Source of the DNA: Nemertoderma westbladi
Lineage: Eukaryota; Animalia; Xenacoelomorpha
Length of the DNA: 64,000 nucleotides
Assembly: GCA_032718475.1 (NCBI GenBank)
Contig: JAUCBJ010008162.1
Location: forward strand, 1-64,000
Direction: 5' to 3'
Position numbers and translations under genes: made by a program. Within the stretch, counting starts at the first letter, position 1, and every line of letters begins with the position of its first letter. The notes under the pieces are model-generated. The model was not told the DNA's origin. It was given only the letters and a program-made list of their open reading frames with translations, and made no database searches. This document shows positions 5,274-64,000 of the stretch, one piece after another.

Positions 5274-5367
5274 TTACTGTAACTTAATCAAAATACGTCG
5301 GATTTTCAAAAGTTTTTACGCTAAAGTTAAACTACAAATGCTACCTTATAGTGAAATAATTCATCAG

Positions 5368-9737: not shown

Positions 9738-9766
9738 TGATTGCCTGAGCCTCGGTAATGCGTTTT

Positions 9767-13812: not shown

Positions 13813-13977
13813 CTCGCTTGGTGATTGGTGGCTGGTGGTTTAGCTGGCTAGGGGAACAGTTCCGATTTAATTACTGAGTTTAGCGCGGGCGGCAGCACTG
13901 GTTTTAATTACTGTGACGGGATCCAGGAAGGATCCCGATTTATCCGTTGTTTAATTCACTCGTCCCCGCCGTGTGTA

Positions 13978-20951: not shown

Positions 20952-21989
20952 TATAACCCTTCGGATGAATTCATTAATTTTAATCAATTAAATTAATTTA
21001 TATTAATTGATTAATTACTTATTTAATTAACTTTATCATTTATTATCTACATATAAGTATGTAGGTAGGCTATGCTTGCTTCACAATAATTAATTAATAT
21101 TTCCAATACAATATACATTTCGCAAATAATTGATAATACATTCTATTGCGAGCACTATTGCGTGAGTATACACTTGCCGCACAATTATTTAATTATACAT
21201 TCTGTGCTGCACAATTAATTAATAATACATCGTCACCTTCAAGGCAGAACCCCCTAAGTCGATTTTTTTCGATTTTCATGTTTTTGACTTTTTGCATAAT
21301 TCGATATCGGCTTTTAGGTCTGGCAGAACCCCGAAGCTTTTCTACCAGCCATTTTTGAGTTACAGTATAAGCCAAAGACAGATCCCCGTAACTTATGCCC
21401 ACTTCGAGGCAGAACCCCACAAGTCAATAATTGGCTTGCAAAACACCGTAAATTCAAGTATATGAAATTCAGTCCACCTGGCAAAACCCCTTAAATTAGA
21501 AATAACAACCTGTAAAACCCCTTAAATCAGAAACAATAGCCTGGCAAAACCCCGTAATTTATCATTTATATACTGGTTTGTATTGCGGCCAGGATACAAA
21601 TATTAATGAGAGACACAAACATTATTGAGGGACGCAAACATTAATGAGGGACACAAAACATTAATAGGGGTCCATGGTTGCCAATGGATATTAATATGAG
21701 CGATGGTGATGCTTGCCATCAGACGATCAGATATTAAGTGATTAACTGGAATTAATACTACCATGGGAACGTGAGCTTCGATCAAAGTACCGCCGTTTTG
21801 TATACATTCCATCTTCCTAATTAGATGGAAATTAATTGAAAGCGATGTTCGGTTCTGTTGTTCAGTAAAATATGTTAATATTTATTGTTGTTATTGTATT
21901 GCTTGACAGTAATGATAATTGTAATACTGTAATATATTGTATGTGTATGGGTGGTAACATGAATCATACTAAGCGCGAAGGGCGATAGT

Positions 21990-23635
21990 GCCCATGATTA
22001 ATGTTTGTGCCCTTGATTGATATCTGTCCCTCGTTTAGTGTTTGTGTCCCTCATTAATGTTTGTGTATCTCATTAATGTTTGTGTCCCTCATTAATGTTT
22101 GTGTATCTCATTAATGTTTGTGTCCCTCATTAATGTTTGTGTCCCTCATTAATGTTTGTGTCCCTCATTAATGTTTGTGTACCTCATTAATGTTTGTGTC
22201 CCTCATTAATGTTTGCGTCCCTCATTAATGTTTGTGTCCCTCATTAATGTTTGTGGACCTCATTAATGTTTGTGTCCCTCATTAATGTTTGCTTCCCTCA
22301 TTAATGTTTGTGTACCTCATTAATGTTAGTGCCCTTGATTGATATCTGTCCCTCGTTTATTGTTTGTGTTCCTCATTAATGTTTGTGTCCCTTATTAATG
22401 TTTGTGTCCCTAATTAATGTTTGTGTACCTCATTAATGTTTGTGTCCCTTATTAATGTTTGTGTCCCTCATTAATGTTTGTGTCCCTCATTAATGTTAGT
22501 GCCCTTGATTGATATCTGTCCATCGTTTATTGTTTGTGTTCCTCATTAATGTTTGTGTCCCTTATTAATGTTTGTGTCCCTAATTAATGTTTGTGTACCT
22601 CATTAATGTTTGTGTCCCTCATTAATGTTTGTGTCCCTCATTAATGTTTGTGTCCCTCATTAATGTTTGTGTATCTCATTAATGTTTGTGTCCCTCATTA
22701 ATGTTTGTGTCCCTCATTAATGTTTGTGTCCCTCATTAATGTTTGTGTACCTCATTAATGTTTGTGTCCCTCATTAATGTTTGCGTCCCTCATTAATGTT
22801 TGTGTCCCTCATTAATGTTTGTGGACCTCATTAATGTTTGTGTCCCTCATTAATGTTTGCTTCCCTCATTAATGTTTGTGTACCTCATTAATGTTAGTGC
22901 CCTTGATTGATATCTGTCCCTCGTTTATTGTTTGTGTTCCTCATTAATGTTTGTGTCCCTTATTAATGTTTGTGTCCCTAATTAATGTTTGTGTACCTCA
23001 TTAATGTTTGTGTCCCTCATTAATGTTAGTGTACATCATTAATGTTTGTGTCCCTCATTAATGTTTGTGTACCTCATTAATGTTTGTGTCCCTCATTAAT
23101 GTTTGTGTCCCTCATTAATGTTAGTGCCCTTGATTGATATCTGTCCCTCGTTTATTGTTTGTGTTCCTCATTAATGTTTGTGTCCCTTATTAATGTTTGT
23201 TTCCCTAATTAATGTTTGTGTACCTCATTAATGTTTGTGTCCCTCATTAATGTTTGTGTCCCTCATTAATGTTTGTGTCCCTCATTAATGTTAGTGCCCT
23301 TGATTAATATCTGTCCCTCGTTTATTGTTTGTGTCCCTCATTAATGTTTGTGTACCTCATTAATGTTTGTGTCCCTCATTAATGTTTGTGTACCCCATTA
23401 ATGTTTGTGTCCCTCATTAATGTTTGTGTACCTCATTAATGTTTGCGTCCCTCATTAATGTTTGTGTCCCTCATTAATGTTCGTGTCCCTCATTAATGTT
23501 TGTGTCCCTCATTAATGTTAGTGCCCTTGATTGATATCTGTCCCTCGTTTATTGTTTGTCCCCCTGATTAATGTTTGTCCCACATTAATGTTTGTGGCGC
23601 TGATAAATATCTGTCCCTCATTTAATGTTTGTGTT
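21990..23635. repeat. 19-bp minisatellite (CATTAATGTTTGTGTCCCT)n with higher-order variants
   Basis: About 1.6-kb tandem array punctuated by the variant GTTAGTGCCCTTGATTGATATCTGTCCCTCGTTTATT. Inverted copies of the unit at about 21600-21670. Confidence 0.95.
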
Positions 23636-24189
23636 CAAGTTGCTATAAGTTACTCTAGGTTGCCGGACGTTTTGGACAATTTGGTCAGCAACTAGCAACG
23701 TAATTTGAGTAACATTAACTTTTAGTCTCCGTTATATGAGGCATCTTTTACAGCAACAAACTTTGCGTTTACATAGAGCAACTTGATCGGCAACCTGACA
23801 TGCTCAATAAGTTGCTGATAGAGTTGCTCACAATGTTGCCACGTACTGTAGAAAAAACAGGTCTTTAATTATTCGTCATGACGTACTGTAAGTGAACTTT
23901 ACTTTAACTTTAACGTAGCTGTATCCCTGTAGCTAGACTTTGTTCTTACTGTAGAGTACCACCCATGGCTATATTTTGTACTTAGAGTTCCGCTTTCATG
24001 AATCTAAATTTTGTTCTTATAGTTCTGCATTTGGCTACGTTTTGTTCAATTTGTATTGATACATGATTCTAACTACAGTCCCGTACTTATTTTAGAAGCA
24101 ATTAATACCAAAATATCAAAAACTTATGGAGCCCTTTAGAATTTTGAATTCAACAATTTCCAACATGTGCGCAAGTGTGTTAGCTATAT

Positions 24190-37440: not shown

Positions 37441-37592
37441 AACTCCTGCCTGAGCTGCAGCAGCTAGCTGTGGAGTAGGAACGGTTGAGTGCAGGGCTGT
37501 CTGAGGTAGAATTCCATCCAGGCGGATTCTGGTCTGAGTGTACAATCAATTACTTCAAGTGTATAGCACTATAAACTGCTTCAAGGGAATAG

Positions 37593-38403
37593 TGTAATAT
37601 TTACGTGTAAACTGTTGTTCCGTTATGTTGTGTTGTCGGTGGGCAAGTATACATGTGACTTGTTTAATGTTTATATTACAAGTAGGACGTTATGTTGAAT
37701 CTATTGCATGGTAAGCGCATGGTTCACTCGTACTTAACACATTATAGTATTACTAGATTATAGTTACAAGTTGGTGAATAATATTGCAGTATTGCGGACA
37801 CATACACTCGCACTAAATGAACCGAATCTATTACAGACAGGTTACAGTCAGCACTTACCGGGTATAAAGCAAAGTGGTGTGATCCTGGGTCTTGTATATT
37901 CATGAACAATATAATGCAATAATAATAACTATAATATGATGATACAATATGGTGATAAGATTTAATGTGCACAGCAAGGTGAAATTTTATAGATTCATGC
38001 TGGCTACATGAACAATAACAGGCCTCAGATGGTAATGGATAAGCCTAGGTAATAGCAGAAGAAACATTGATTATTATACATACAGTGAAGATGGAAACAG
38101 TCAATAACGCGCAGAACACCAGAAAGTATGGCAACCAATAGGAGTTTTAGAACTATGGCAACCGATGCTGGGCAATGGATAAATAAGATCAACGGTGGCA
38201 CATGGATTGGACACAAAATATTATGCGCACAGAAGTTGAATAGTTCTCTGATAAAAATAGAAGATTTCAATATGCAGTTAGCGTGTGCATCAAAACCGTT
38301 CCCTAAAATTACGTACAAGTTCAACAATCGTTCTATAAATGACACATTATTTAGTTTTGAGATTTGAGAGGTATATACAATGTTTCGGTGACTGTAGGTT
38401 ACA
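37593..38403. repeat. Uninterrupted LTR-like repeat (TGTAA...TTACA)
   Basis: Near-identical to 5368-7793 without its insert. Preceded by purine-rich AAGGGAATAG (PPT-like). No TSD seen. Confidence 0.75.
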
Positions 38404-38649
38404 TCGCTGTTGGATACTTACTACATACGATTAATGATTTAACTAAATAGATAAATGAAATTAATTAGGGGCCGATCAACCTCCACATATAAATAATAAA
38501 GTTTGTTGAATCACTTCCGGTAGGACTAAATAAGTATTAAACGACCTTTCACACAAACATTAGAGTTTGATATATTTACAAATATGGTAGGTCGGTAAAT
38601 TAATCGGCGTAAGTAGGTAAGTATTGGGTCATATAATCCTTCAAATATG

Positions 38650-39786: not shown

Positions 39787-42700
39787 AATTGTTATCAGCA
39801 ATGTGTAAATATATATTAATAATTCAACAGAAGTAAACCAATGAGTCCATATAATTGTTATAATAACTTGAGTTTGTATAAGGCCGGCAATGCTGGGCCA
39901 CCCGTCCCTATCCCCACCCTGACACGGATCCAAGCTTCCCCTTGCCGCGTTTTATTGCTGCTGTGTCTATTCCCTATCCAACAGATGTGGAAGAACGGGT
40001 GGAAGACAATCAGCTAACACGCAGGAGAAGCTCAAGACCGGTCTCTCCAAGGGCTGTCCGTAAGGGGGTTATATAGACTGTTGCTGTGCAACTGAGATTA
40101 GTCTGCAATAGGGTTTCGGTTTGCTACAGTATACATACAGAGAATAGCTGTTATTTGTACTATCACGCAAACTAACACACCGAATGCCACAACACGCACA
40201 AATGTCCGTTACAAAACCTACTATTTCCCGAATATTAATATTTTAAATTTCCATGGATACTTATTAAATAAATTCAAATGCATCAACTCTAGGGAAAAAT
40301 GTACGATAAAACTCTAGAAATTTAATAAAAGGGTTGCACAAGTGACACACCAGCATCCCAATATTTTAATTAGCTATTAATTATAACAAGGATCAACATT
40401 CGGTAAATATAGCGGTGGAATAGGGTATTGCTCATTCACACAGATCTGGGCCAACTGTGATATTATTACATCTTTGTTGGTTGTATTATTTAAATTATTT
40501 ACTTGGCTGTGGCAAACACCACAACCAAGTAAATAATTTAAATAGTATCGGTGTTTATACTATTGTTGTATTAATGTCGCAATTAAAGGGTTGATGGTAT
40601 TAAGCTATTAATGAATAATATAAATATAAATTTACGCGATCTAGTGACATAAACTAAGTTTACTCATCCTTGGGAGAGAGCCACTAAGCAGACCACAACC
40701 GTTCCCGTAATGCTTATTATTACAGTGACTTGAACGGATTTATGTGAATGTGATATTGTATTAACAATATCAAGCTAGCTTGGTTCTTGAAGTTTCAAGC
40801 CAACTAATAATTGACATATCTTACTGTACTCTGGCGATTGACAAGAAGCGGGAGTAGTAATTAAGACTCTGCATTCAAGTATTATTAGGCCATCATAATA
40901 CAGCAAGACCAAGGTTTGTTATTGTCATGCGTCATGTTTAATAATGACTTATCATAACTAGTGTAGTTTATTATAATTTTATTTGTAACGCCCTTATCTA
41001 CTCGGGTTACACATGAAGTGGCGGGCCGTCTCCAGAATTTACCCAGAGTTTGGTTTAACCGAAATAAAGGATATGGATTCCGCATTCAATTGTATTATCA
41101 CCATCATCATACAAGTATTAAGGGTTTTGGTTGGTTGCGCGTCATGTTTAATAATGACTTATCGCAACATGTTGTCAAGAATTGAGCTCAGGTTTCATGC
41201 GTCGTGTGTATAACGGCTTATCATGAAACATCCCACTATTCATAATAATGTTCTAGAATGTTCTAGAACTGAGATCAAGTTTCATGCACTGTGTATAAAT
41301 CAGTTTATCATGAAACATCCCGCAGTCCTATTGTTTATGTCATTTTATTCGTAATTCTTCTAGAACTAAGCTCAAGTTTCATGCACTGTGTATAAAACGA
41401 TTTATTATGAAACATCCCATAGTCCTATTGTTATTTGGGACAGAAGCAATGTAAGAATTAATTACGTTAGCCTGTCAAGCTAAATGTATGGCATATTTTT
41501 AAAAACGTATGGGGTCAGTGGTTGACGATGCAACATAACCCGTTCCCACGCTTGAGTGTGATACACAGCACACTCAAACGTTCCAAGGGAGTTAACTAGA
41601 CCAATAAAAATTATGTCAAGTCTGTGGGCTTGACTTCTTGCTTGCCGTAGTTGCCAGATTCTTCGCGTGCCATTTCTAGCAGGCAGGGTTGGCCTATAGG
41701 ACAGTTGAGTTTTTGGGGGACAAAGCTTAGTTTGCCCTTTTCCCTCAGCACTATGGGATCTACTGATCTTACCAGGCCATCCACTATCATTCTACTATCA
41801 TTCTCCTTCCACATATACGTCGAACGAGGTCTCGAGCTCGCAATATAACTGGGCTGCTGAATCCTAGGGGGTCGAAATAAGCACTGAGTATGCCTAGGCG
41901 AATACGTTTGGTTCGGGTATCGCCCTTTCTCAACTTCACTTTAAATACCATAGTGTCACGTTCTGTAGGCCAACAAAGACTTAATGGCTTAGTCTCCGGT
42001 AGGCCGTCCTTATTTAAGTCTAGTTCGGTATCGCTACGCTCGGCGGGGGTATGGCCTTTAAAAACTCACGGGAATTGCTCATGAGTTTTGTTAGGCAAAA
42101 TCCTCCAAGTTTCAGGCAGTTTACTGTCCTTGACTTCTGTTACGATCGGGGCTGGTTTCGGGTTGTTGTCTATGTAAATATCCCATTTGAAATTGTTTAT
42201 GACCAGAGGTGGAAATTCATCCCTATGGTCATCAGCCACACGATGCAGTCGTAAGTCGGATGGTGTATCTAATAGGATAGTCATTGGAGACACAATGTCG
42301 GGTTCACTGTACCTAGTAAGGAAACAGTCTTGGTCTGAGGACAGGGGTGCGTCACTATCACTGTCAGTTTGGTCAGGGGTAGTCAAGACATCCTCTTCTG
42401 TCTCTATGGTCTCATTGCAACGGTGGGTCACTAAGTTGCAAGTGTTGGTGTCTGTATTTGTCAGTCCTTTTTGCTCAAACAGTGTCTTCCGAGAAGGCCC
42501 GGTACAGAACCATCCCACTCTGGTCTGACAGGCATAGGCTGACATTGGCTCTCCAGAATCTCTAAGGCCTCTGGTACATTTTGGCCTATCAACATCTGTA
42601 CACCTGGGTAGTCTGGGGTGAAATGGGGAATATTGTACTTTCTTAGGAGAGCGTCATCATCCCAGTTATAAGCGTTTGCCTGACTTTTGGCAAAATCCCG

Positions 42701-50709: not shown

Positions 50710-52000
50710 TGTTCGCGGTATTTCAACTTTCCATAACGCGAGTTGAATATTTTTGTATTTTTATTAAAATTGATTATTCCGATATTACTACTGGGTGCGG
50801 GACCATGGGTTTTGGGCACATTCAATAAACTGGGGGCGATTTATGGGCGAACTTTGGGGCAACTTACAGGGTACGGGAATAATTTCATAGTTATAAGGGC
50901 CAGGGGGGATGGAAAATGCAAGCAGTATTCAGGTTAGCCTGAGTACTATTAGGCCCTGGCCAACTTCCTGCTGCCTGTAGGGGTGGATTTGGTAATGTGC
51001 CAGGCCTAAAGGACAAGGACTGCCCTTAGCGGTCCCTGGCCAACGGCAGCTACTACGAGCCTGAAAAGGACTCGGAACGCTGACTGCTTGTGTCAGGGAT
51101 TTGCGACGGGCACCGACGGCCCCTTAGTAGCCAAGCCGTTCTGGTTCTCGATGATCGAACCCCGGGGTTCGTGAGGGGTGGAGCGGACACGCGAACAGGT
51201 GGCCAACTTAAGACTGCCCCCTGACCTAAGCCGTACTGGTTCTCGATGACCGATCCCTTCGGGGTTCGTGAGGGGTGGGACGGACATGCGAAAGGGCTGG
51301 CCACAGGACTGGTTTGACAAGGACTGCCCTTAGCGGTCTCGGGTCAACTGCAGCTACTACGAGCCTGAAAAGGACTCGGAACGCTGACTGCTTGACTGTG
51401 ATTCGCGACGGGAGCCGACGACAGACCCCTTAGCCAAGCCGTTCTGGTTCTCGATGATCGTTCCCTTCGGGGTTCGTGAGGGGTGGAACGGACACGCGAT
51501 GGGGTCGAAAGACAAAGGACTAGACTCGACTAGACTCTACTGGCCTACCGACTGTTCGGAGCAGTTTCTCGGCTGCCGAAGCGACTACGAGCCTGAAAAG
51601 GACTCGGAAAGCCTAGGTGGTTGGGTTTCTGTGATGAACTGACGGACCCCTAGCCAAGCCGTTCTGGTTCTCGATGATCGAACCCTTCGGGGTTCGTGAG
51701 GGGTGGAACGGACACGCGAACGGGTCCACCGACACGACAGACTCCTAGCCAAGCCGTACTGGTTCTCGATGACCGAACCCTTCGGGGTTCGAGAGGGGTG
51801 GTACGGATACGCGACAGAGTCTACCGACTGGACCGACCCTTAGCCAAGCCGTGCTGGTTCTCGATGATCGTTCCCTTCCGGGTTCGTGAGGGGTGGAACG
51901 GACACGCGACAGGGTCGACCGACACCGACACTACGGCACTAAGACTGGGACTGAGGGAAAATCTGGGGAACATTAGGTAGGCTAAAATTCTGAGCGAACA
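50710..52000 (+). repeat. 5' LTR of element E (right end uncertain, about 52000-52240)
   Basis: Starts TGTTCGC; the exact inverse GCGAACA ends at 52000, but no clear PBS follows. Contains internal repeat arrays. Confidence 0.75.
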
Positions 52001-52580
52001 GCGGGTTATTAAATAATATACCGTAGGGATTTATATTATCGTGTATACTTATTGTGAATATTTGGTGTATATTGATTTGGGGAAGCCCAAAATTATTCTT
52101 AATCAGGTTTGAACAGGTTTGAACAGGTTTCAACAGGTTTTCAACTATAGGAAGTTACATTAAAGAGTATATCCAACTAATGCAGCTTTTCTCAACCGCA
52201 AACTTGCATCTTAGAAATATTCCCTCCCCACAATCAATATCCGGTGACTGGCCGGGGCTCGGTGGTCTGTTAAGTCACGTCTCCAGCATCGGCGTTTTTC
52301 CCCCTGGTGTAGGAATAACGGCAACAAAATTAAGAATAATTCACGTGGTTAATTTTGACAGGGTGTCAAAATTAAGAATAATTATCGCGGTCAACTTCAA
52401 CTGGTGGAAGTTGAGAATCCTTCAATACTCTTCAAAAACTCTCTACGTGCTTGCCAGCACCCACTACGAGGAAACTCTGGTATTTGAGTTGAGACAAAGT
52501 CGTGGTTTAATTAATCAGCAAACTCGATCTAACCAACTCGTAGTCGGCAGATCACAATTCGGGAGAGTTGTTAACAGGGA

Positions 52581-52772
52581 ATGGAAGTATCGATCACACC
52601 CATTGATATAATTCAAGTTGAGCCAGGAATCTGGCACGTCGAAGTTGAGGTACAAGGAACGAACGTTGGACGATTCAGGATTACTGTTCGGGTGGTCCAA
52701 GCTGAGTACAATACCTACGAGGAACTGTTTTACGACATCGCGTATCTCGCCATCGACGAGGCGTTACAATGA
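52581..52772 (+). CDS. 63-aa upstream ORF overlapping the gag start (ATGA)
   Basis: Its TGA stop overlaps the gag ATG at 52769-52772; protein-like composition. Confidence 0.35.
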   Translation: MEVSITPIDIIQVEPGIWHVEVEVQGTNVGRFRITVRVVQAEYNTYEELFYDIAYLAIDEALQ

Positions 52773-55700
52773 CCACAAATAACATATCCGATACCGACGA
52801 GATGGATCACCACACAGACTCGGAAGCCGACGAGGTCCCAAACGTCAAGAACATGACCCGTCGGTTAGGGGCTCTTAAAGGCGGAGTAACCCGAGCGTAT
52901 CAACGGATGGAGAAACAACTCAAGGGAGTCAAAACCCCCCTCAACGAGGTACAAACTCAGCTTCAAAGTATCCGAAATATCCTACAGCGGTACGAAAGAA
53001 TGATACAGGCGTACCAAGAGCTCGTTCCTCCCACCGATCAGGAAAACTACCCCAAGCTGGAAGAACACGTTGTACATCTAGATGGGTTCCGCAAACAACA
53101 CCGAAGGACCCTCAGCCTGGTGAGAGGCTATGAGGAACAGTATTACAAGAGGGCTGAAAGAACAGACGCGGAATCAGTACGATCCTCCAGCATCAGGACA
53201 GGAGTACATCACAAGAGAATGGGGTCCACCAGAAATCAGCACTCCAGCGCTAGGAGCGAGATATCCGGCTCAGCGCGCAGTTCTCAAGGGGCGCCGCCAC
53301 TCCGAGACCAACTGAGAGAACGGAAGGCATTAGCCCTCAAAGCTCGGATGGAAGATGAGTATATTCAACTGCAAGCCGAGCAAGATGTACTAGCCGCCGA
53401 AACACAAAGGCGAGAAGCCGAACAAGCGGCCGAACGACAGGCGGAACAACGCGAACAGGAGGCCGAACAACATAGACGAGAGGCCGAACGACAGGCGGAA
53501 CAACGCAAACAGGAGGCCGAACAACGCGAACAGGAGGCCGAACAACATAGACGAGAGGCCGAACGGCAGGCCGAACAACGCAAACGGCAGGCCGAACAAC
53601 ATAGAAGAGAGGACGAACGACAGGCCGAACAACGCAAACAGGAGGCCGAACAACGCGGACGAGAGGCAGAACGAGAGATCGAACAACGTAAATGGGAAGC
53701 GGAAATGCGTAAACAACACGCCGAGGCCCAAGCAATTCTCATCCACAAAAAGAATGCGGATATTGCAAAACTCGCAGAATACGAAGCCGCACTTATCGAA
53801 CGAGATATTCAACTCTACGAGGACTGGGAAAGGGATATAGATCAGGAATATGAACCAATTCCGGTACCGGAGTTAGAAAAGTCATTTACACCAACAGCGG
53901 CGAAACCTCCGAAACCCGAGATCCCGCCTACCAAACAGTCTACGCTATCGGCACAAGCCCCGGTGTTCCATCCCCCACCAGCTACGCTAAAGAATGAGGA
54001 ACCTTATTTCCCATCCAACACCACGACAGCGAGTGTACCCAAGTACGAGCCTGAAAAGGACTCGGAACGGGACGCCACTCCCCGATCAAATAACCCGTTT
54101 ACATCGACACCACAAACTCGTAGCCGCGTCATTATTAAAACTCCACCTATTATTGATCCATCAAGTATGGGAGTGAGTGCCAATAACTATAACCCTCCGA
54201 GTCACTCCAGTTCAGATGACGTCAGCATCATCCGGGCGTTGGAGAACCGCCTTGCCATGCCTAAGATGGAGATTCGCACCTTCGAAGGAGATCCCGTCGA
54301 TTACCTCAGATTCAAGAAACGGTTCTTCGCGCAGATTGGATCAACGGACATAGCCGACGCACAGAAATTGGTATATTTATCGCAATACCTGGGTGACAAA
54401 CCACGCAGAATTGTTGCATGTTTTGAAGGAGGTTCTCATGAGGCATACTATGATGCATGGAAAACTCTGGATAAAAGATACGGAAATACCGGAACTATAA
54501 TTAATAAAACTCTAGAGAGACTGATACAGGACGCGGGATCACTAGGAGACCCACAGAACATACAGGAATTCTCCGACTCTATGAAGGATGCCTACTATAC
54601 TCTGAAACCCTTGAATAAGGAGGACCAGGTGAACAACATTCTAAACCTCCGACAGATCGCCCGGAAGTTCCCCGGATGGCTACAAAGTAAGTGGGCTTAT
54701 AAATGTGTAGACCTCCGGCGCAGACATCCAGATCGAGATCCTAGCTTCCTTGAGATGTCGGCATTCCTGGACGATATCTCCGAAGCCATGAATGACTCGA
54801 TGTTTTCCAAACAAAGTCTCGCAAAGTTGGACGGAATAGAGAGCAACTCCAGGAGTAAGATAACCCCTCCGAAACCAAGATTCCGACCCCCACCGGTGAG
54901 TACGATGGCCATCACCATGGCTGAGGATTCCGACGACGAAGACTACGAGGAACCGACATCCGCCGAGGAATGGGCATGTTATCTCGCGAATTGGGCACCC
55001 GAAAGGGAAGGCATCACAAATTCCCTGCTCTGTCTCTTCTGTGGGGAGAAACATAAAGTGGAATTCTGCAGAAAGTTTCAGTTCGCCGACCTCGTCCCAC
55101 GCTTCGAGGCGATAATGAAACACCGAGGATGCTTCCGGTGTCTTGGAACAGGTCACTACGTTCGGGATTGCGACCAAAGGTCGTGCTGTGCTGTCTGTAA
55201 CGACCAACGCCATCACACGCTCCTCCACATCCCCGCGAACTTCGATTTTACTACCCTCCCCTTTCGGATCGAAGCCAAGCGAAGAGGAGAAACAAACCAC
55301 GTCTTCAAAGGAACCCGGACAACCCAACGGAGAGAAACCAACCCGTTTAAAATCTCCACCAATACACCACAAGTAACAAATATTTCGGCCACGATTAATC
55401 TTATAAATCGCCGCTACATGGTTTTCGCAAAGGTAATCCCAGTAAGGATCCAAGGAGTCGGCAAATCTTTGACGACACTCGCGTTCCTCGATAACGGGTC
55501 CGACGGAACCATCATCGACCGGGATTTTCTCGAGCAACTCGGACTAGAATATGAACCTTGTAAACGGCCCATACAAACCATCACCGATAACAGAGAGGTA
55601 GAGTCCGGGGAGGTGCAACTCCAGATGGAAGGAGTGATGAAGGGCTACGAAACGGCTAAGTTAACCATAAAGAACGCCTTGGTACACACAGACCTCCGGG

Positions 55701-58700
55701 TGCGGTTCCGACAATCAGCCGAGTATGCCCCCCTCATACAATTGGACCGGGACGATGTAGACCTGAGGTGCCCGCAGTTGGACGTAAACCGTATCACCCT
55801 ACTGATCGGACTCGATACACCGGAACTACACATCCCAACCGGAGATATCGCCCGATCTATAAACCAGGATGACGGATTTTATGCTGAACGAACAATAATG
55901 GGATGGACACTCTGCGGCATTAAGGAGGAAACTACGGACACCTATACCTACCTTCCCAAATGTCAGATTAAAGAGAATGTAATCTCCGTGGGTTATTGCT
56001 CAGCTTCGGATCTTGACGAGGATTTGTTTCTGGAATCCGAGAAAACTCAACGAGAGATGACGAAATATTTTAATTTGGAGACCCAGGAGTTCGCGGAAAA
56101 GGACGAAAACCCATCCGAAGAGGACCAATATTGCATGGACGTTCTCGACCAGGCCACGTTTAAAGACGGACATTGGTGTTCACCTATGTTATGGAAGGAT
56201 CCAAACAAACCAATGGCAAACAACGCCAGCATGGCACTTAAACGACTTAAAGGGATTCTACGCCGGCTGAATGACCAACCTGAAATAAAGGAGAAATATA
56301 ATACCGTAATCCAAGGATATCTCGATGATGGATTAGCAGAAATGGTACCACGGAATGAACTGCAAGGTGGTAAAAGAACATATTATCTCCCAACCCACTA
56401 TGTAGTAGAAGCCCGCAAAGGGGGGAAAATCCGAGTGGTAAATGATGCTGCCGCTATGTACCAGGGCGAATCCCTAAACAGTCAACTTTACACGGGACCC
56501 AACATATATAGCACACTCATCGGCGTATTGATCAGGTTCAGGGAAAACCGGGTAGCATTTACCTGTGACATCAAGGCCATGTTTCATCAAGTTCGTACGT
56601 TACCAAAAGACTCGGACTGTCTACGTATCCTATGGACGGATAAAACGCTTACTCAACAGGAGATTAGCCAACTCACGATACGGGACGTAGACGTAATGCG
56701 TATGGTCGTCAGGATCTTCGGCGCTAAGGACTCGCCGGTAGCATGCAGTGACATGCTAAAGAGGACGGCAACTATGTGCGAAAACGAGTTCCCTCCAACC
56801 GTCATAGAAACCATTCGACGATGTTTCTACGTGGACGACGGATGCGCCGGCGCGGATAACGTGGATGAGGCATATCGGCTAGCAATGGGGATGGTGGAAT
56901 GTCTAAAGAAAGGAGGGTTTCCGCTCGTAAAGTTCAGATCCCATGACAAAACACTTATGGAAAAGTTTCCGGAGGACATCCGGCTGGAAGATAACAAAAT
57001 GTATTCGGAGGATGTAGAACATCGTGTACTTGGGATTGAATGGGACATAGAATCAGACGAATTCATCTTCAAGTATAAACCCCTAACCAAGCCTATGACA
57101 AAAAGGGGATGTCTGTCGATAAAAAGTGCAATCTTCGACCCACTGAATTTCATATCTCCAGTAACCTTGGCCGGAATGAACCTGATTAAGGAAATGTGGA
57201 TAGAAGGACTGGGATGGGACGAAGAGCTCCCCCCATACCTTAGCGTCAAATGGAGAAAATGGACGGAGCAGCTCGAACACCTACATCTTATGCGAATACC
57301 TAGACCGTTCTTCCTCGATAAACTGCCCACCGATATCTTCCAGCTCCACACCTTTTCGGATGCTTCAAATACCGGAATCGGCGTAGTAACCTTCTTACGG
57401 AGACTAAGTAGCGATGGAAACGGCGATACAAGTTTCTTATTCTCCAAAGCAAAGACAGTATCCGGGGAATTCGTAGCAACGATTCCGAGACTCGAGCTAC
57501 AAGCTGCAGTTTGGGCAGTAAGACAGAATCGCATGGCCATGCGGAACCTACGGATCCCCATAGAATCTCAACACTTCTGGGTAGATTCGAGTATAGTTCT
57601 TTATTATCTCCACTCTCCATCACGGCGTCACACCACGTTTGTTGCAAACCGAGCCACGGAGATTAAACAATGTACCGGCCGAGAACAGTGGCATCACGTG
57701 AACGGGAAGGAAAATCCAGCGGACTTATCAAGCCGAGGCGCCACCCCAAAACAACTCGGTAAGAGTAAACTCTGGCTTACAGGCCCGGAATTCCTACGGC
57801 AGCCACAATTAACATGGAGTACCCGATTCGACCCCGAGCTCGATAGCGGAAAATACTCCGAGGACGACAAAGAAATCCGTAAAATCCATCGAAGCAACGC
57901 GGTGGAAATTTATAGTTGTCTGACTGAGCCTGCAAAGGACTCGGGCAGGCACTATAACGTCGCGACGATCACTCAACTAGCGACGTCTTTACATCGGTTG
58001 ATCGAGCGAACTTCATCCATGAGACGGCTCGTCCACCACGTTATAACCCTTCGCAACTTCCTACGGTGGAAAAACAACAAACCGATAGTTCAACGGAATA
58101 TACAAGAACTCATCATTGCGGAGAAGTGTATTGTTAGATATGTCCAGAAAGAAAGTTTCCCCGATGAATGGGAACAACTTAGTGCGGGCAAAACGTTGAA
58201 ACCGGACAGCCCAGTCTACCAACTGAGACCAATGATGGGAGAGGACGGACTGATCCGACTGAATACCCGGATGGCAAACGCCCCGGTCGACTATGAGATT
58301 AAATACCCGGCGCTTCTGCCCGGAACGTCGACACTAGCTAAGCTATTAATTCTACAATGTCACGAGGACAACCACCACGCAGGACAGAATTGGATTATAG
58401 CCAATATAAGACAAAGATATTGGATCACCCACATCCAGCCACTGATCCGGAAAGTGTTGAAACGTTGCTTCACCTGCAGACGTTACCTAGCGCCACCAAT
58501 CACCCAAAAGATGGCCGACTTACCAGCCACCCATCTACAAGCGGACTCCCCACCATTCTACGTCACCGGAGTGGACTGTTTCGGACCGTTCACGGTTATT
58601 GAACGACGATCCAACATCAAATGCTGGGGAGCCATCTTCACCTGCCTAAGATCTAGGGCAATTTACCTAGATATCGTGGTAAATCTGACACAACACGCAT

Positions 58701-59530
58701 TCATCAACGCTCTGCGTCGGTTCGTGGCGAACAACGGGACATGTCGCCACATGTATTCCGATAATGGTACAAACTTTGTGGGAGGAGAAAGAGAACTTAG
58801 AGAGGCGATCGAGGGATGGTTTACCGATAACACCGCATCCCAAGTCTGGAAGGAACACCAGATACAGTGGCACTTCCAGACCCCCCTAGCACCCCATACA
58901 AGCGGGGTATGGGAGAAACTGATCGACCTAGTGAAACGGTCCATGCGCGTCGCTCTAGGCGATACCCGGGTAACCCATGACACCCTCCGCACAACATTCT
59001 GCGAGATCACGGCTACCCTGAACAACCGACCCATTGTTCCTATCCGCGACGACCCCACAGACCTGGAACCCCTCACTCCTAACCACTTACTGGGGAGACC
59101 CAAAACCCACCTCCTCCCGGAAACCATGTTCCCGGATCCCAACGAGATCGCAAAACATACAAACTGGAAAAAGGCCCAAGCGTTGGCAGCGCATTGGTGG
59201 AGGATTTGGGCCCAGGAATATCTCATAACCCTCCGGACCAGGAGGAAATGGAACAACACCCACCGGAACGTCGCAGTTGGCGACATGGTACTAGTTAGAG
59301 AAGATCTCAAAGACCGCGTTCACTGGCCTGTGGCGCGGGTCGTGACCATACACCCAAGCAAAGACGGACTTGCGAGGACTGTGACGATACGAACGAAAGC
59401 GGGCCACTACCAACGCCCCATCCAGAAGCTGTGCCTTCTTGAAGGCAATGACAGTGGTGATTCTACAAGAGGTGATAAGTTCCCTACGGATCCTACTGTG
59501 GACATTGGTGACAATGACAAATGCGTTTAA
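52769..59530 (+). CDS. gag-pol: Bel-Pao Gag-Pol polyprotein, 2253 aa, single ORF
   Basis: Coiled coil, DUF1759-like core (FEGDPVDYLRF), three knuckles (CLFCGEKHKVEFC, CFRCLGTGHYVRDC, CAVCNDQRHHTLLH), protease LDNGS, RT YVDD, Pao-type RNase H (FSDAS, IPRLEL, WVDS, NPADLSSRG), integrase (HHAG...CFTC, GVDCFGP, SDNGTNF, GVWE) and a DUF5641-like tail. Confidence 0.97.
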   Translation: MTTNNISDTDEMDHHTDSEADEVPNVKNMTRRLGALKGGVTRAYQRMEKQLKGVKTPLNEVQTQLQSIRNILQRYERMIQAYQELVPPTDQENYPKLEEHVVHLDGFRKQHRRTLSLVRGYEEQYYKRAERTDAESVRSSSIRTGVHHKRMGSTRNQHSSARSEISGSARSSQGAPPLRDQLRERKALALKARMEDEYIQLQAEQDVLAAETQRREAEQAAERQAEQREQEAEQHRREAERQAEQRKQEAEQREQEAEQHRREAERQAEQRKRQAEQHRREDERQAEQRKQEAEQRGREAEREIEQRKWEAEMRKQHAEAQAILIHKKNADIAKLAEYEAALIERDIQLYEDWERDIDQEYEPIPVPELEKSFTPTAAKPPKPEIPPTKQSTLSAQAPVFHPPPATLKNEEPYFPSNTTTASVPKYEPEKDSERDATPRSNNPFTSTPQTRSRVIIKTPPIIDPSSMGVSANNYNPPSHSSSDDVSIIRALENRLAMPKMEIRTFEGDPVDYLRFKKRFFAQIGSTDIADAQKLVYLSQYLGDKPRRIVACFEGGSHEAYYDAWKTLDKRYGNTGTIINKTLERLIQDAGSLGDPQNIQEFSDSMKDAYYTLKPLNKEDQVNNILNLRQIARKFPGWLQSKWAYKCVDLRRRHPDRDPSFLEMSAFLDDISEAMNDSMFSKQSLAKLDGIESNSRSKITPPKPRFRPPPVSTMAITMAEDSDDEDYEEPTSAEEWACYLANWAPEREGITNSLLCLFCGEKHKVEFCRKFQFADLVPRFEAIMKHRGCFRCLGTGHYVRDCDQRSCCAVCNDQRHHTLLHIPANFDFTTLPFRIEAKRRGETNHVFKGTRTTQRRETNPFKISTNTPQVTNISATINLINRRYMVFAKVIPVRIQGVGKSLTTLAFLDNGSDGTIIDRDFLEQLGLEYEPCKRPIQTITDNREVESGEVQLQMEGVMKGYETAKLTIKNALVHTDLRVRFRQSAEYAPLIQLDRDDVDLRCPQLDVNRITLLIGLDTPELHIPTGDIARSINQDDGFYAERTIMGWTLCGIKEETTDTYTYLPKCQIKENVISVGYCSASDLDEDLFLESEKTQREMTKYFNLETQEFAEKDENPSEEDQYCMDVLDQATFKDGHWCSPMLWKDPNKPMANNASMALKRLKGILRRLNDQPEIKEKYNTVIQGYLDDGLAEMVPRNELQGGKRTYYLPTHYVVEARKGGKIRVVNDAAAMYQGESLNSQLYTGPNIYSTLIGVLIRFRENRVAFTCDIKAMFHQVRTLPKDSDCLRILWTDKTLTQQEISQLTIRDVDVMRMVVRIFGAKDSPVACSDMLKRTATMCENEFPPTVIETIRRCFYVDDGCAGADNVDEAYRLAMGMVECLKKGGFPLVKFRSHDKTLMEKFPEDIRLEDNKMYSEDVEHRVLGIEWDIESDEFIFKYKPLTKPMTKRGCLSIKSAIFDPLNFISPVTLAGMNLIKEMWIEGLGWDEELPPYLSVKWRKWTEQLEHLHLMRIPRPFFLDKLPTDIFQLHTFSDASNTGIGVVTFLRRLSSDGNGDTSFLFSKAKTVSGEFVATIPRLELQAAVWAVRQNRMAMRNLRIPIESQHFWVDSSIVLYYLHSPSRRHTTFVANRATEIKQCTGREQWHHVNGKENPADLSSRGATPKQLGKSKLWLTGPEFLRQPQLTWSTRFDPELDSGKYSEDDKEIRKIHRSNAVEIYSCLTEPAKDSGRHYNVATITQLATSLHRLIERTSSMRRLVHHVITLRNFLRWKNNKPIVQRNIQELIIAEKCIVRYVQKESFPDEWEQLSAGKTLKPDSPVYQLRPMMGEDGLIRLNTRMANAPVDYEIKYPALLPGTSTLAKLLILQCHEDNHHAGQNWIIANIRQRYWITHIQPLIRKVLKRCFTCRRYLAPPITQKMADLPATHLQADSPPFYVTGVDCFGPFTVIERRSNIKCWGAIFTCLRSRAIYLDIVVNLTQHAFINALRRFVANNGTCRHMYSDNGTNFVGGERELREAIEGWFTDNTASQVWKEHQIQWHFQTPLAPHTSGVWEKLIDLVKRSMRVALGDTRVTHDTLRTTFCEITATLNNRPIVPIRDDPTDLEPLTPNHLLGRPKTHLLPETMFPDPNEIAKHTNWKKAQALAAHWWRIWAQEYLITLRTRRKWNNTHRNVAVGDMVLVREDLKDRVHWPVARVVTIHPSKDGLARTVTIRTKAGHYQRPIQKLCLLEGNDSGDSTRGDKFPTDPTVDIGDNDKCV

Positions 59531-59799
59531 ACCCTTCTCATCATGTTGACAAACTCTTTTTAACTGTGATTTATCGACAACGAGTTATGGACCCCCCTTA
59601 AACCAACTGTAACCACGCAATGGTATTTGTGTTTCCTCGTGTGTTATGTGGAGTCCAGCATCACCCTGCAGATGTTTCGACTGACGCAGGGTCGTTTATG
59701 CATTGTTTACCCTGATTTTGGTCATCAGGACCTACGATATTGGATTATTGGAAATGGAAAAGATTTGAAGTGGAATTCATTGTATTCATTGCAGTATGT

Positions 59800-60230
59800 T
59801 ATGTTGTCCGTTGCGTGCGCAGTTCGGGGCGTAGGCGGTGTAACGAGTCCAGCTGTAGATCCCGGATTGCCGCGCAACACCCCCTCTATCCCGTTATTCT
59901 GGTGGGTCCATGGTGCATCCACGTGACTTCGACGATAGAGGGTTTTATGTTTCTCAGTCGCGTTATTCTGGTGGGACCGTTGCGTGGATTTTGGGGCGTA
60001 GGCGGTGTAACGAGTCCAGCTGTAGATCCCAGAATGTTGCGTAACCCCATCCCACATGACTTCGTCGACTGAGCTTTATGTTGTTGGGAGTGTTATTCTG
60101 GTGGGTCCCTGGTGCACCCACGTGACTTCACTCCTAGCGTCTTCATTGTCCGTTACGTGCGCAGTTTGGGGCGTAGGCGGTGTAACGAGTCCAGCTGTAG
60201 ATCCCAGATTGCCGCGTAACACCCCTTCCA
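59800..60230 (+). repeat. Three ~170-bp repeats in the pol-ORF2 spacer
   Basis: Identical core GGGGCGTAGGCGGTGTAACGAGTCCAGCTGTAGATCCC at 59826, 59993 and 60168. Confidence 0.9.
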
Positions 60231-60771
60231 CGACAAAGATTAACCAAAGAAAATGATTCAATATAGTTGGAAATGATGAAAAGGATCAGACAACTCTGCT
60301 ATAAACCCGAATGATGACGCGTATACTGATGAAAATGTAATGATGCGCACCCTGGTGCTGCGCTTATAACAATGATGATAGCCGGGGGGCTATAAACCCA
60401 ATGATGATGTGGAAATAAATAAATGTGAAATAAATGGTGGAACTAAATGTTGAAATATATGTGGAAATAAATGAGATGAGATGAAATAATAATGAAATGA
60501 AAAAAGACAAAAAAAAGGTATAAAAGAGGTCAAAGAAAAGAATTGGAAAAAAAGGACAAAAAAGTCATAAAAAACTGGTTGGATATTATGTATAGCTATA
60601 GTAACTGTAAATGCTGAATGTATTAGCAATAAGATGATAGATGCCTATATAGCAATGTTATTGAATAAACTGAATTAAATAAAAAACTGAATTATTCTGC
60701 TATCGCTATAGTTTCAGACTTTCTGGACTTATAATTAACTGAACTAATTTGTAACGGATATAATCGTAAAT

Positions 60772-63372
60772 ATGGACCCAAATCGCCAAATTATCGGCGA
60801 ATTACGTAACACGGTAGATCTACTGGAATATTCGCAACCCGGATCCCCTGACTTTGATACAAATTGGAACATTCTGCTAAATGAGAACGTACGAGAAATT
60901 AAATTCACCGGGCGAGAGGGACCGGATTCTAAGAATCTACGAGCCCTCCAGTTAGCCGATGCTACTACGAGCCTGAAAAGGACTCGGAACGCAAAGGCAA
61001 CCGGAGGGGACGATTCGTCGTTTTGGGAAACGTTCCGGCAGAGCGTCTACAGATCCCGATGTTTGATCTACGACAACGAGGGAAACGCGACGCCCACCTC
61101 GAAGGCGATTACGTTGGCGAGATGTCAGAGCTTCGTCGACGACAAGAGTACGTACCTCGCCCACTGGGGAAACTTGTCGGAGTGTACGGCGACGCTTCGA
61201 GAGGAACGCGTATCGATTATCCAAAACCGCGACGACTACCAGGAAAAGTACGGGGCGAAAGAATACGGTCGATCCTTAGTCGTCGTCCTCGGAACCCTGG
61301 ACGGTTTGGTACTGGTGTGCCGAATATTCCCGACACCCAGACATGAAGTGCAGGCAGCCGGAGCGATCTGGTTGCTGCCTACGGATATCCAAAAGATCCT
61401 CTTCGACTTCGACGTCATTAAAATCGGGTCGGATATCAAGGCGGACGTCCGGAACGATTACGCGAACGCTCCCGCAGGAAGAAACCGACGAAACGACCTC
61501 AACGCACTTAGCCATTGCATCGATACTCAAACGCTGCTAGCCTGGTTACGATTCGCCGAGTTCATGCGAGGATTCCAAGAAGTGAGACCGACGAAATCCG
61601 GAATCGGCTACCTCGCTGTGCTCAACGGCGGTATCGACTTCAAACCCCAGAAATTCCGGGACTATAATAAAATATACGGCGGATACCCGGGATTAGAGAT
61701 AAAGAGCGAGCGAGAGGGTCGATGGAAGGACGTCGATCGGAAGTGGACGATACACCAAAGGTGGGAGAATCCCGATCGACGGAGCTATATCTACGTCGTT
61801 ATGGAATGCTACACCGTCGCTAAGTTTATCTGCAAGACTCTAGATAACCTCATCAAGGCGGTCCCCCTTTCCTTCGTCGACTACGACTGGAACGAGGTTA
61901 TAAACCACGCGTTTAAAGCGGTCGAGAACATTACACCGGGAGAATCGAAAACGCCCGCCGTTATCGAATCCTGGGACGAGAGCGGACCTTACGATATCCC
62001 TACGATTACCGAACTTCTCGGTGCGGAGGAGCCTCTGATCTCCTCGGAAGGGGAAGAGATATGGCTAAACGAGGGTGTTCTACTCTCCACCCCGAAGCGA
62101 CAACTCGAACCGGAGGCCGCGTACGGACCGGCCGCCAAACGGGTTGCCTCGGCCGAACCGATAAAGAGAGCAGGCGTCTACACCCCACGCGGCTCCGGTA
62201 GCCCCGCGAGAGAGGTAGCCACTACGGCTGCATTGAGCGACTTCGGCGACATATGCCAACGGTTATCCCCGTATCCTTTCCCGGGTGGCGAAGATTGGTC
62301 GTCGGAGATCCCGAGTACCAGCCACCTACGGACCCGCTCAGCGATACTGGTCGAGGAGGGACCCAGCGATGCGCCGACACCCGATGATCTCCTCGGTATC
62401 CCTCCGTCGAAAACCCCGGCACCTCTTCGCCGACCAGCGGTAGCTACTACACCCGCCGTTCCTCAGGACCCTATGCGACTAACCCGTTGGTACGCCGAGC
62501 AAACTGAATGGATCCACCGCCAGAAACGGTCGTCCGAGTTGAGACCATCGGGACATAACGAGGGTTATCGGAGCGAAAACATACTACGCAAGAGCCCAGC
62601 ATTCCGCGGGCTACCGACCACCGAGAATATTCCGAAGAGCGACCGACGACTCGAATACTACGCCGGCGTTCCGATTCCGATATTCCCCGGTCGGGAGATG
62701 CAGTTGGAGGTATGCGACGACTGCGGTTCGGAGCAGTGCCCACGCAGCAGAAGGAATCGGGTTACCGATTCTTGCCTCCAGCTCCTTGGGATACTCTATT
62801 GCCCATACTGCGCGATATCGGGCCACGACGTTTCGGTCTGTCCGATCCTTTATAACCTCTGCACCACGTGCGGTTTCCGTGGACATTCCGCTAGCCCCCG
62901 CTGCTATATTAAATGTCCAACCAAAGACGTTACCGCTATGGGCAATATGGTCATGTTTGAGACATACGCAAACAGCCATTTAAAGACCAAGTTTCGGAGA
63001 AACGCTCGGAATATTGCGCAGGAGATGGCGTGCGGATATTTCTCCTTCCCGGAACGCCTCCACACGTCGGCCTCGCTACCCTTCCATTACGTGGATCTGC
63101 TACTGAGCGCCGGATTATTCGGTCCATTCGAAGTTATTAGACGATTATATTCGTATAAAGAGGAGTTCGGTGACGGAGAATGGTTCCTAGAGGCACGCAA
63201 CTCCGAGTTGGAAAGACGAACCGACATGATCCCGATGCCTTCGAAAGGAAGAGCCGCCAGGAGACAAGCCGAAGCGTTACTCACGATGGATGTTGACGCT
63301 CCTCTACCAGCCATAGCGATCGATGAGAGTCGACGGGCGAAGAGACGGAAGGCGTACCAGAAAAAGAAATAA
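60772..63372 (+). CDS. 866-aa ORF2: WRN/EXD/Mut-7-like DEDD 3'-5' exonuclease domain, disordered linker, CCHC zinc-knuckle cluster
   Basis: ExoI IYDNEG (D101/E103). LPTDIQKILFDFDVIKIGSDIKAD (ExoII D225) fits the WRN-type LP..L..LL.D..I.KVG..I..D pattern, followed by CIDTQ. ExoIII IYVVME (Y341/E345). Knuckles CDDC...CPYCAISGHDVSVCP...CTTCGFRGH...C. Confidence 0.8.
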   Translation: MDPNRQIIGELRNTVDLLEYSQPGSPDFDTNWNILLNENVREIKFTGREGPDSKNLRALQLADATTSLKRTRNAKATGGDDSSFWETFRQSVYRSRCLIYDNEGNATPTSKAITLARCQSFVDDKSTYLAHWGNLSECTATLREERVSIIQNRDDYQEKYGAKEYGRSLVVVLGTLDGLVLVCRIFPTPRHEVQAAGAIWLLPTDIQKILFDFDVIKIGSDIKADVRNDYANAPAGRNRRNDLNALSHCIDTQTLLAWLRFAEFMRGFQEVRPTKSGIGYLAVLNGGIDFKPQKFRDYNKIYGGYPGLEIKSEREGRWKDVDRKWTIHQRWENPDRRSYIYVVMECYTVAKFICKTLDNLIKAVPLSFVDYDWNEVINHAFKAVENITPGESKTPAVIESWDESGPYDIPTITELLGAEEPLISSEGEEIWLNEGVLLSTPKRQLEPEAAYGPAAKRVASAEPIKRAGVYTPRGSGSPAREVATTAALSDFGDICQRLSPYPFPGGEDWSSEIPSTSHLRTRSAILVEEGPSDAPTPDDLLGIPPSKTPAPLRRPAVATTPAVPQDPMRLTRWYAEQTEWIHRQKRSSELRPSGHNEGYRSENILRKSPAFRGLPTTENIPKSDRRLEYYAGVPIPIFPGREMQLEVCDDCGSEQCPRSRRNRVTDSCLQLLGILYCPYCAISGHDVSVCPILYNLCTTCGFRGHSASPRCYIKCPTKDVTAMGNMVMFETYANSHLKTKFRRNARNIAQEMACGYFSFPERLHTSASLPFHYVDLLLSAGLFGPFEVIRRLYSYKEEFGDGEWFLEARNSELERRTDMIPMPSKGRAARRQAEALLTMDVDAPLPAIAIDESRRAKRRKAYQKKK

Positions 63373-63528
63373 TGGATTGGGATATTCCAGGAACATTTAT
63401 CGAACATTTATTTTTATACAAACTCTAGGCCATATTAATTAAAACTATGCAATATTAAATTTGGGATTTTTTATATTGGGAATGACCTACGCAAACTCAA
63501 TCGACCGACAGACTTCACGAAGGTCATT

Positions 63529-63536
63529 GGGGGGGA
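63529..63536 (+). other. Polypurine tract
   Basis: GGGGGGGA, one base before the 3' LTR TGT. Confidence 0.8.
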
Positions 63537-63537
63537 C

Positions 63538-64000
63538 TGTTCGCGGTATTTCAACTTTCCATAACGCGAGTTGAATATTTTTGTATTTTATTAAAATTGA
63601 TTATTCCGATATTACTACTGGGTGCGGGACCATGGGTTTTGGGCACATTCAATAAACTGGGGGCGATTTATGGGCGAACTTTGGGGCAACTTACAGGGTA
63701 CGGGAATAATTTCATAGTTATAAGGGCCAGGGGGGATGGAAAATGCAAGCAGTATTCAGGTTAGCCTGAGTACTATTAGGCCCTGGCCAACTTCCTGCTG
63801 CCTGTAGGGGTGGATTTGGTAATGTGCCAGGCCTAAAGGACAAGGACTGCCCTTAGCGGTCCCTGGCCAACGGCAGCTACTACGAGCCTGAAAAGGACTC
63901 GGAACGCTGACTGCTTGTGTCAGGGATTTGCGACGGGCACCGACGGCCCCTTAGTAGCCAAGCCGTTCTGGGTCTCGATGATCGAACCCCGGGGTTCGTG
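63538..64000 (+). repeat. 3' LTR of element E (partial)
   Basis: Matches 50710-51173. Confidence 0.97.

Follow-up and report, generated by a model that had tools for sequence, protein, structure and literature searches.

Loop E (sarcin-ricin) motifs are RNA modules in which a U.A handle with a bulged base stacks on an A.A pair beneath a sheared pair (PMC6633198). In potato spindle tuber viroid (PSTVd), loop E involves U257, C259, A261, G98 and A99, the bulged base being a C, and substitutions at C259 and U257 have been reported as isosteric (PMC5823408). Among retrotransposon proteins, CERV of Cer1 is a precedent for export (PMC10309623), and Maelstrom and EXD1 have been described as inactive, RNA-binding DEDDy derivatives (PMC5408684). 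Outside a few model systems, little is known about how long terminal repeat (LTR) retrotransposons recognise, export and shield the RNA they produce, and the role of their DEDDy-like extra open reading frames (ORFs) has been open since these were first described (PMC5408684). Here we report a hairpin that occurs seven times along a BEL/Pao LTR retrotransposon of Nemertoderma westbladi, located in a stretch of 64,000 nt (assembly GCA_032718475.1, contig JAUCBJ010008162.1, positions 1 to 64,000 of the forward strand; hereafter the window). The hairpin set is a real feature, belonging to a kind already known, the cis-acting RNA signals of retroelements, and is very probably a selected RNA structure of some sort. 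The element also encodes an additional protein, ORF2, which is a candidate reader of the hairpin.

The repeated hairpin and its predicted fold

An initial annotation of this DNA had reported a 19-nt sequence recurring through the element, and the recurrence was recovered in full: six exact copies start at 51056, 51360, 51588, 54046, 60968 and 63883, and a variant with two mismatches starts at 57925. All seven are on the + strand, the sense strand of the element, as had been reported. No further match with up to three mismatches occurs in the 64 kb, and none was found in 100 shuffles. Scanning the window for structure only returned the seven known copies on the + strand plus one unrelated match at 14957 on the - strand, and the window matches of a covariance model made from six copies were the seven known sites, with the next best at 14 bits. 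Successive copies are separated by 304, 228, 2458, 3879, 3043 and 2915 nt, and the identical stretch among exact copies spans 24-45 nt. In a 139-nt context, the proposed 7-bp core with one bulged A and a GNRA loop is borne out by prediction, with core pairs at a probability of 0.98-1.0 in six of the seven copies; the outermost core pair of the gag copy has a predicted probability of 0.59.

The 19 nt first described are the core of a larger unit of about 32-36 nt, whose 5x4 internal loop and closing stem had been overlooked. In six of seven copies the core is flanked by a 5-nt strand on its 5' side and a 4-nt strand on its 3' side, followed by the closing stem. The internal-loop letters are UACUA/GAAC four times, GACUA/GAAA once and AAGUA/GAAC once. 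Closing stems differ in letters and keep their pairing (CAGC/GCUG in LTR copies 1 and 2, CCC/GGG in gag, UGC/GCA in ORF2); when the six distinct copies are aligned, 95% of cells pair, and two of three closing pairs change on both sides.

The letters of the sarcin-ricin/loop E motif (A.A, U.A and a sheared A.G around a bulged base, between two helices) are present in six of the seven copies, and the predicted internal loop fits this register. UACUA/GAAC matches the letters of PSTVd loop E, and loop variation among the copies is confined to the bulged base and the end pair, the positions tolerated in PSTVd (PMC5823408). Rfam, 5S rRNA included, gave no match at the gathering score in a search with E up to 10 (best 11-17 bits, E 1.9-9.1). 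A ribozyme reading was dropped, as no Rfam match was obtained.

Three copies lie inside coding sequence, and their peptides had been given correctly for gag (YEPEKDS) and ORF2 (TSLKRTR). That the copies are read in different frames holds for ORF2, which uses another frame, but not between gag and pol, which share one (EPEKDS, EPAKDS). Under each ORF's own codon usage, the chance of the observed codons is 3.6e-4 in gag and 9e-6 in ORF2. Across an alignment of the top 40 of 120 relatives, identity at the gag and pol sites is 3-5% and 67-69% of cells are gapped, compared with 33-42% identity in the reverse transcriptase (RT), RNase H and integrase domains, and an EP-x-KDS-type peptide was found in none of the 120. 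By this alignment, the gag and pol copies sit in linkers that are unconserved among relatives. Because the same DNA is read in two frames, the codons are improbable and the sites are unconserved, protein coding does not account for the letters.

Variation among family copies and range of the motif

Element-wide variants were drawn from 40 of 1131 rows listed, from which the variants of the gag and ORF2 copies come. Three fall in or near the hairpins, all compatible with the fold: 54057 A>G in the gag copy turns U-A into U.G (Lys to Arg), 60965 C>G in the ORF2 copy replaces a bulged C with the standard bulged G, and 60950 A>G in the ORF2 stem converts an A.C gap into a G-C pair. For the pol copy, four runs (three samples) were examined over 231 bases, using all 25 rows at 24 sites from 57859 to 57997. 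The 19-nt core contains 0 of the 24 variable sites, where 3.3 are expected (P 0.02), and the 48-nt stem contains 2, where 8.3 are expected (P 0.002); one of these, 57919 T>C, changes U.G to C-G and keeps the pair. Inside the variant-free gap at 57920-57958, which was picked post hoc, none of 13 third codon positions is variable, compared with 15 of 34 beyond the gap (P 0.002).

Diverged contigs of 311, 191 and 144 nt, which look like sister families, align with the window at 57902-57966 alone, with 7 differences in 65, and their flanks drop out at the 80% setting; by eye, about 6 letters in 10 of their loose ends match the window. Since these contigs align over the hairpin alone, they lend independent support to its constraint. 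The suggestion of a dispersed RNA recognition tag under selection, made in the initial annotation, thereby gains from four sources: re-paired closing stems, pair-keeping variants, a variant-free pol core and the diverged contigs.

Outside the family, the exact 24-nt pattern was found 0 times in viral contigs and 0 times in metagenome contigs, and the covariance model had 0 matches in all 10 of 10 distant BEL/Pao loci. Two of these loci have terminal repeats merely 7.0 kb apart, which leaves little room for an ORF2. Comparable dispersed repeats beyond the LTRs were seen in none of the 10 loci, nor in two other gag-bearing remnants of the window. The tag is lineage-specific as far as these sequence data reach. 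In the literature, searched mostly as open-access main texts, we found no LTR element with a near-identical loop E/GNRA hairpin repeated across its ORFs, no DEDDy ORF in BEL/Pao, and no report of dispersed packaging signals for LTR retrotransposons.

ORF2 and the host element

Language-model features place amino acids (aa) 80-390 of ORF2 near PF01612 exonuclease clusters (24 of 30 matches, 0.93). Word-index searches found no relatives of ORF2, and none were found in viral contigs, phage records or PDB. A HMMER scan with aa 74-393 gave four matches, three of them real-looking; the fourth, P0124, was a spurious 34-residue match and was left out of the alignment. Three singletons, P0123, P0125 and P0126, group with ORF2 in a small exonuclease-like family. 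P0123 (on a 9.4-kb contig) mirrors the ORF2 layout, with an exonuclease domain, three knuckles that resemble those of HIV-1 nucleocapsid (NC), and a C-terminal domain (pairwise E 9e-16 and 5e-11). All three relatives have the first exonuclease motif, D-x-E, which is absent from ORF2 at the aligned place in either plausible register; the acidic residues of the second and third motifs appear to be kept. Because the first motif is missing there, ORF2 is probably not an active nuclease, and the idea that the hairpin provides protection from, or recruitment of, the element's own nuclease is weakened. From its sequence, ORF2 is likely an inactive nuclease fold with RNA-binding knuckles, an adaptor rather than a nuclease. 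Its basic stretches at aa 453 and 854-866 resemble nuclear localization signals.

The element is identified as BEL/Pao by one gag-pol ORF encoding, in order, DUF1759, protease, RT, Pao RNase H (Peptidase_A17), integrase and DUF5641 (Table 1); Pfam matches are DUF1759, Peptidase_A17, Integrase_H2C2 and DUF5641, with Asp_protease_2 below the cut-off. Among the 120 matches listed, the nearest pol relatives share 33-38% identity, with PF05380 present. The three Gag zinc knuckles read CX2CX3HX4C, CX2CX4HX4C and CX2CX4HX4H, in keeping with the zinc-knuckle pattern. Tandem 21/33-nt repeats at 53368-53726 code for a charged coiled-coil stretch of Gag.

Of 463 aligned bases, 462 are identical between the two LTRs, which also differ by a 1-base offset change; this near-identity marks a young insertion. 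Candidates for the 5' LTR end are 51197, 51972 and 52000, of which 51972, with a 9-bp self-complement, is best. The hairpin at 51056 and its twin at 63883 lie in LTRs as had been annotated, and the same placement for 51360 and 51588 hinges on the LTR end. No TGG, as a transfer RNA primer site, is found directly past the likely end at 51972. Positions 51973-51985 can form 9 bp with 51541-51549 inside the LTR, a weak lead toward self-priming of the element. The sole AATAAA of the LTR sits 115 bases past the LTR start (50824 and 63651), and an ATTAAA lies at 52008; which of these serves as poly(A) signal decides whether the 3' LTR hairpin is in the RNA.

The flank of the element is repeated, with flank contigs diverging from the window at 50709. 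Thousands of contigs, drawn from two runs, map to the element and suggest that its family is large. In run X4, contig depth is 82-133 over the leader and ORF2 (52008-52304, 60374-62531), compared with 22-38 over gag-pol (52325-56007); this might reflect a derivative with an internal deletion that spares ORF2, as far as contig depth, which cannot rank parts, can indicate.

A second structured repeat is interleaved with the hairpins of the 5' end. Most of its copies have a UUCG-capped hairpin. A 5-nt bulge interrupts its predicted fold, which can alternatively be drawn by eye as a kink turn, with a GAU bulge, tandem G.A and U.U; a single pair differs in both of its bases between copies, and joints in family contigs show the array shrinking and growing. 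A third repeat, of long hairpins in the pol-ORF2 spacer, was considered as an antisense partner and set aside: its conserved centre ranked 1 of 6331 windows (-28 kcal/mol) for LTR copies 1-2, it ranked 6-174 for the other four copies tested, and co-folding keeps both hairpins.

Elsewhere in the window, other BEL/Pao or gag-like remnants are located at 7881-13839 (-), 2-2065 (-), 14537-15028 (+) and 41814-42248 (-), frameshifted or truncated and without the motif. A tandem satellite with a period of about 19 nt occupies 21592-23636, with an inverted piece at 21592-21674. Repeat copies at 5366-5700 and 7313-7794 (a split site) are 99% identical to 37591-38404.

Table 1. Coordinates of the retrotransposon, its hairpin copies and associated repeats in the window.
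Feature	Coordinates	Strand	Description
5' LTR	50710..51972	+	Firm start, probable end; starts TGTT; twin of 3' LTR
Hairpin copy 1	51047..51082	+	Closing stem, 5x4 loop, 7-bp core at 51056-51074, bulged A, GAAA loop (predicted)
Second structured repeat	51126..51915	+	About 70 nt, six copies interleaved with hairpins; seventh starts at 63955
Hairpin copy 2	51351..51386	+	Motif match, predicted fold, covariance model
Hairpin copy 3	51581..51612	+	Loop GACUA/GAAA, 2-bp closing stem
gag-pol ORF	52769..59530	+	Intact, 2253 aa; Pfam domains; three Gag zinc knuckles at aa 755-820
gag-linker hairpin copy	54038..54071	+	Loop AAGUA/GAAC, closing stem CCC/GGG
pol variant hairpin	57910..57957	+	RNase H-integrase linker; GCAA loop, long stem, no 5x4 loop
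Third hairpin repeat	59804..60228	+	Three long hairpins in pol-ORF2 spacer; 3 of 25 pairs compensated
ORF2	60772..63372	+	866 aa; exonuclease-like region at aa 130-350 (approx.), low-complexity linker, zinc knuckles at aa 677 and 697, basic C-terminus
ORF2 hairpin copy	60960..60993	+	Other frame; on longer predicted stem, about 60944-61008
Polypurine tract	63529..63536	+	Directly 5' of 3' LTR
3' LTR	63538..64000	+	Runs past window end; carries hairpin copy 7 at 63874-63909

Possible roles of the hairpin and comparison with known systems

Our best explanation, offered tentatively and with somewhat less than an even chance of being right, is that the hairpin is a family-specific, selected RNA tag that is read by ORF2 and serves to export or protect the full-length RNA. 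The seven sense-strand repeats would fold into a loop E-type internal loop joined to a bulged GNRA hairpin, and a sequence-specific protein would read the loop E, the bulge and the tetraloop; such a reader is suggested because the core letters are nearly fixed while the closing stem changes freely. The weakest parts of this scheme are the identity of the reader, with ORF2 as an adaptor that has zinc knuckles and a catalytically degenerate nuclease fold, and the outcome, in which ORF2 might escort the full-length RNA from the nucleus or shield it from host surveillance. ORF2 offers the simplest link because the lineage has two unusual features, the tag and ORF2. Beyond the 5' cluster a tag occurs every 2.5-3.9 kb, so any long piece of the RNA would carry one, which suits coating or licensing of the whole RNA.

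Several observations weigh against this explanation. The covariation score of 0.187, equalled or beaten by 6 of 500 shuffles, lends support short of proof, since the structure model was derived from the same sequences that were scored, and related rows can beat shuffles. Six of the seven core pairs are invariant, hence the core stem itself covaries little, and the pol copy has a long stem in place of the 5x4 loop. The statistical test of variation covers the pol copy, with variants counted on contigs, and there 57910 T>C breaks the terminal pair of the stem. Depth over the pol hairpin is 2-3 times higher, raising the 1% listing threshold, and when counting is confined to the 12 sites with depth above 800, P rises to 0.16 (core) and 0.15 (stem). 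Variants are also missing from both ends of the pol stretch (39 bases at its start, 53 at its end), which were excluded as edge effects. As for ORF2, its domain has no profile match in Pfam, NCBIfam or PHROG, Pfam giving a weak knuckle only; its structure models are of low confidence (predicted local distance difference test 34, AlphaFold); the register of its first motif is ambiguous; and its connection to the hairpin is their co-occurrence in one lineage.

Were Gag the reader, its zinc knuckles would bind the hairpins as dispersed packaging signals, the 5' cluster nucleating the particle and the internal copies helping to fold in the 13-kb RNA. Three copies cluster at the 5' end and Gag has three knuckles; dispersed packaging signals are known in RNA viruses, and GNRA-type loops occur in retroviral packaging regions. 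Known dispersed signals are degenerate, however, whereas the copies here are letter-perfect, and retroviral psi lies in the leader. The 10 distant BEL/Pao loci have the same kind of Gag-Pol and lack the motif, and the copy inside ORF2 would tag an ORF2 message too, if any exists. We hold packaging by Gag to be rather unlikely. The near-invariance of the hairpin would also suit a partner unable to co-evolve, such as a host protein recruited by mimicry of the loop E arm in 5S rRNA (with TFIIIA or L5 as the partner) or through a signal for transport or export, comparable to the stem-loop of the I-factor that Egalitarian (Egl) reads. Viroid and 5S motifs with a matching loop E register recruit host factors (PMC6633198, PMC12382478), and Egl-bound signals have a 3'-strand bulge, one of them within I-factor coding sequence (PMC13186709), but these signals need two helices of at least 6 bp (PMC13186709), compared with 3 and 4 bp around the bulge here. 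The lack of an Rfam match, 5S included, also counts against mimicry, and a conserved host partner predicts a broader spread than was observed. Recruitment of a host factor seems unlikely too, slightly more so than packaging.

The bulged A of the core is the A of GGACU, the consensus of the N6-methyladenosine (m6A) writer, and GGACU with this A unpaired is kept in seven of seven copies, so that the hairpin could display m6A. GGACT is found 8 times in the LTR where 4.1 are expected, although this count includes three motif copies, and 14 times in gag-pol where 7.8 are expected (3 of 100 shuffles each), and L1 relies on an m6A cluster in its 5' untranslated region (PMC7873242). Yet DRACH sites as a wider class show no enrichment, with a low count in ORF2, and m6A display, which leaves the loop E and GNRA letters unexplained, seems very improbable. 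Hardly to be expected, too, is a DNA site at which a dimeric factor would bind the inverted half-sites CGAG-N11-CTCG contained in the core, on the analogy of VANC targets: proteins encoded by transposable elements that bind dispersed family-specific DNA motifs do exist (PMC5735166), but seven of seven copies lie on one strand, G.U-tolerant changes and flanks that are paired but different are RNA signatures, and the motif forms weak DNA hairpins (-5.4 to -7.8 kcal/mol). A neutral origin, in which template switches by RT or gene conversion placed an LTR snippet into tolerant linkers, merits equally little credence. The copies are located where insertions are tolerated, the LTR array grows and shrinks among family copies (joints in contigs), and the depth-corrected constraint on the core alone is not significant; against this, the same snippet occurs three times, each with its own paired stem, which amounts to three double changes that keep Watson-Crick pairs (about 0.25 cubed), and the hairpin is kept in diverged contigs whose flanks fall under 80%.

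A 36-nt unit open to synthesis stands beside two candidate readers, so both questions, how such elements handle their RNA and what the DEDDy-like ORFs do, can be addressed with short RNAs and separate protein domains. Should ORF2 prove to be the reader, it and the hairpin would make a compact orthogonal pair of RNA tag and binder.

Compared with the dispersed packaging signals of RNA viruses, the locus likewise has several similar stem-loops along a genome, but its copies are few and nearly identical. Rev uses one response element, as against seven dispersed copies here. Cer1 with its CERV protein, and Rev/Rev response element (RRE)-type export, offer a parallel in that an LTR retrotransposon encodes an accessory protein, rich in Cys, for which a role on the full-length RNA of the element itself is proposed; Cer1, however, is Ty3/gypsy, and the part of the source drawn on mentions neither an exonuclease-like domain in CERV nor a stem-loop or RRE (PMC10309623). 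The sarcin-ricin/loop E of 5S rRNA and PSTVd shares the 5x4 loop, the A.A, U.A and sheared A.G letters and a bulged C or G (PMC6633198, PMC5823408); here the module is repeated, capped by a bulged GNRA hairpin and set in a retrotransposon, with a geometry predicted from letters.

In bdelloid rotifers, ORF3 of Juno and Vesta is also an extra ORF after pol with a DEDDy-type domain (PMC5408684), but its catalytic residues are intact (PMC5408684, PMC6338049), these elements are not BEL/Pao, and the portions of PMC5408684 consulted describe no RNA tag; relative to ORF3, ORF2 has knuckles added and the first motif missing. The signals of Egalitarian, including the I-factor localization signal (ILS), are similarly 3'-strand-bulged stem-loops in retrotransposon coding sequence, contacted by an exonuclease-homology domain, but they have a host reader, diverse sequences and helices of at least 6 bp (PMC13186709), whereas the hairpins here have short helices, fixed letters and an element-encoded candidate reader. 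In VANDAL elements, VANC is likewise encoded by the element and proposed to recognise motifs particular to its family, which multiply in tandem arrays, but it binds DNA motifs in non-coding parts of plant DNA transposons (PMC5735166), as opposed to an RNA structure in coding linkers. In its fullest form, which we hold to be doubtful, our proposal is of an RNA barcode set at intervals of roughly 3 kb, running through coding linkers in two reading frames, with a self-encoded reader (a nuclease-dead DEDDy fold with zinc knuckles) that licenses export or exempts the RNA from surveillance of the PIWI-interacting RNA type. If true, the barcode and its reader would parallel VANC anti-silencing at the level of RNA, and Egalitarian with a reader supplied by the element itself.

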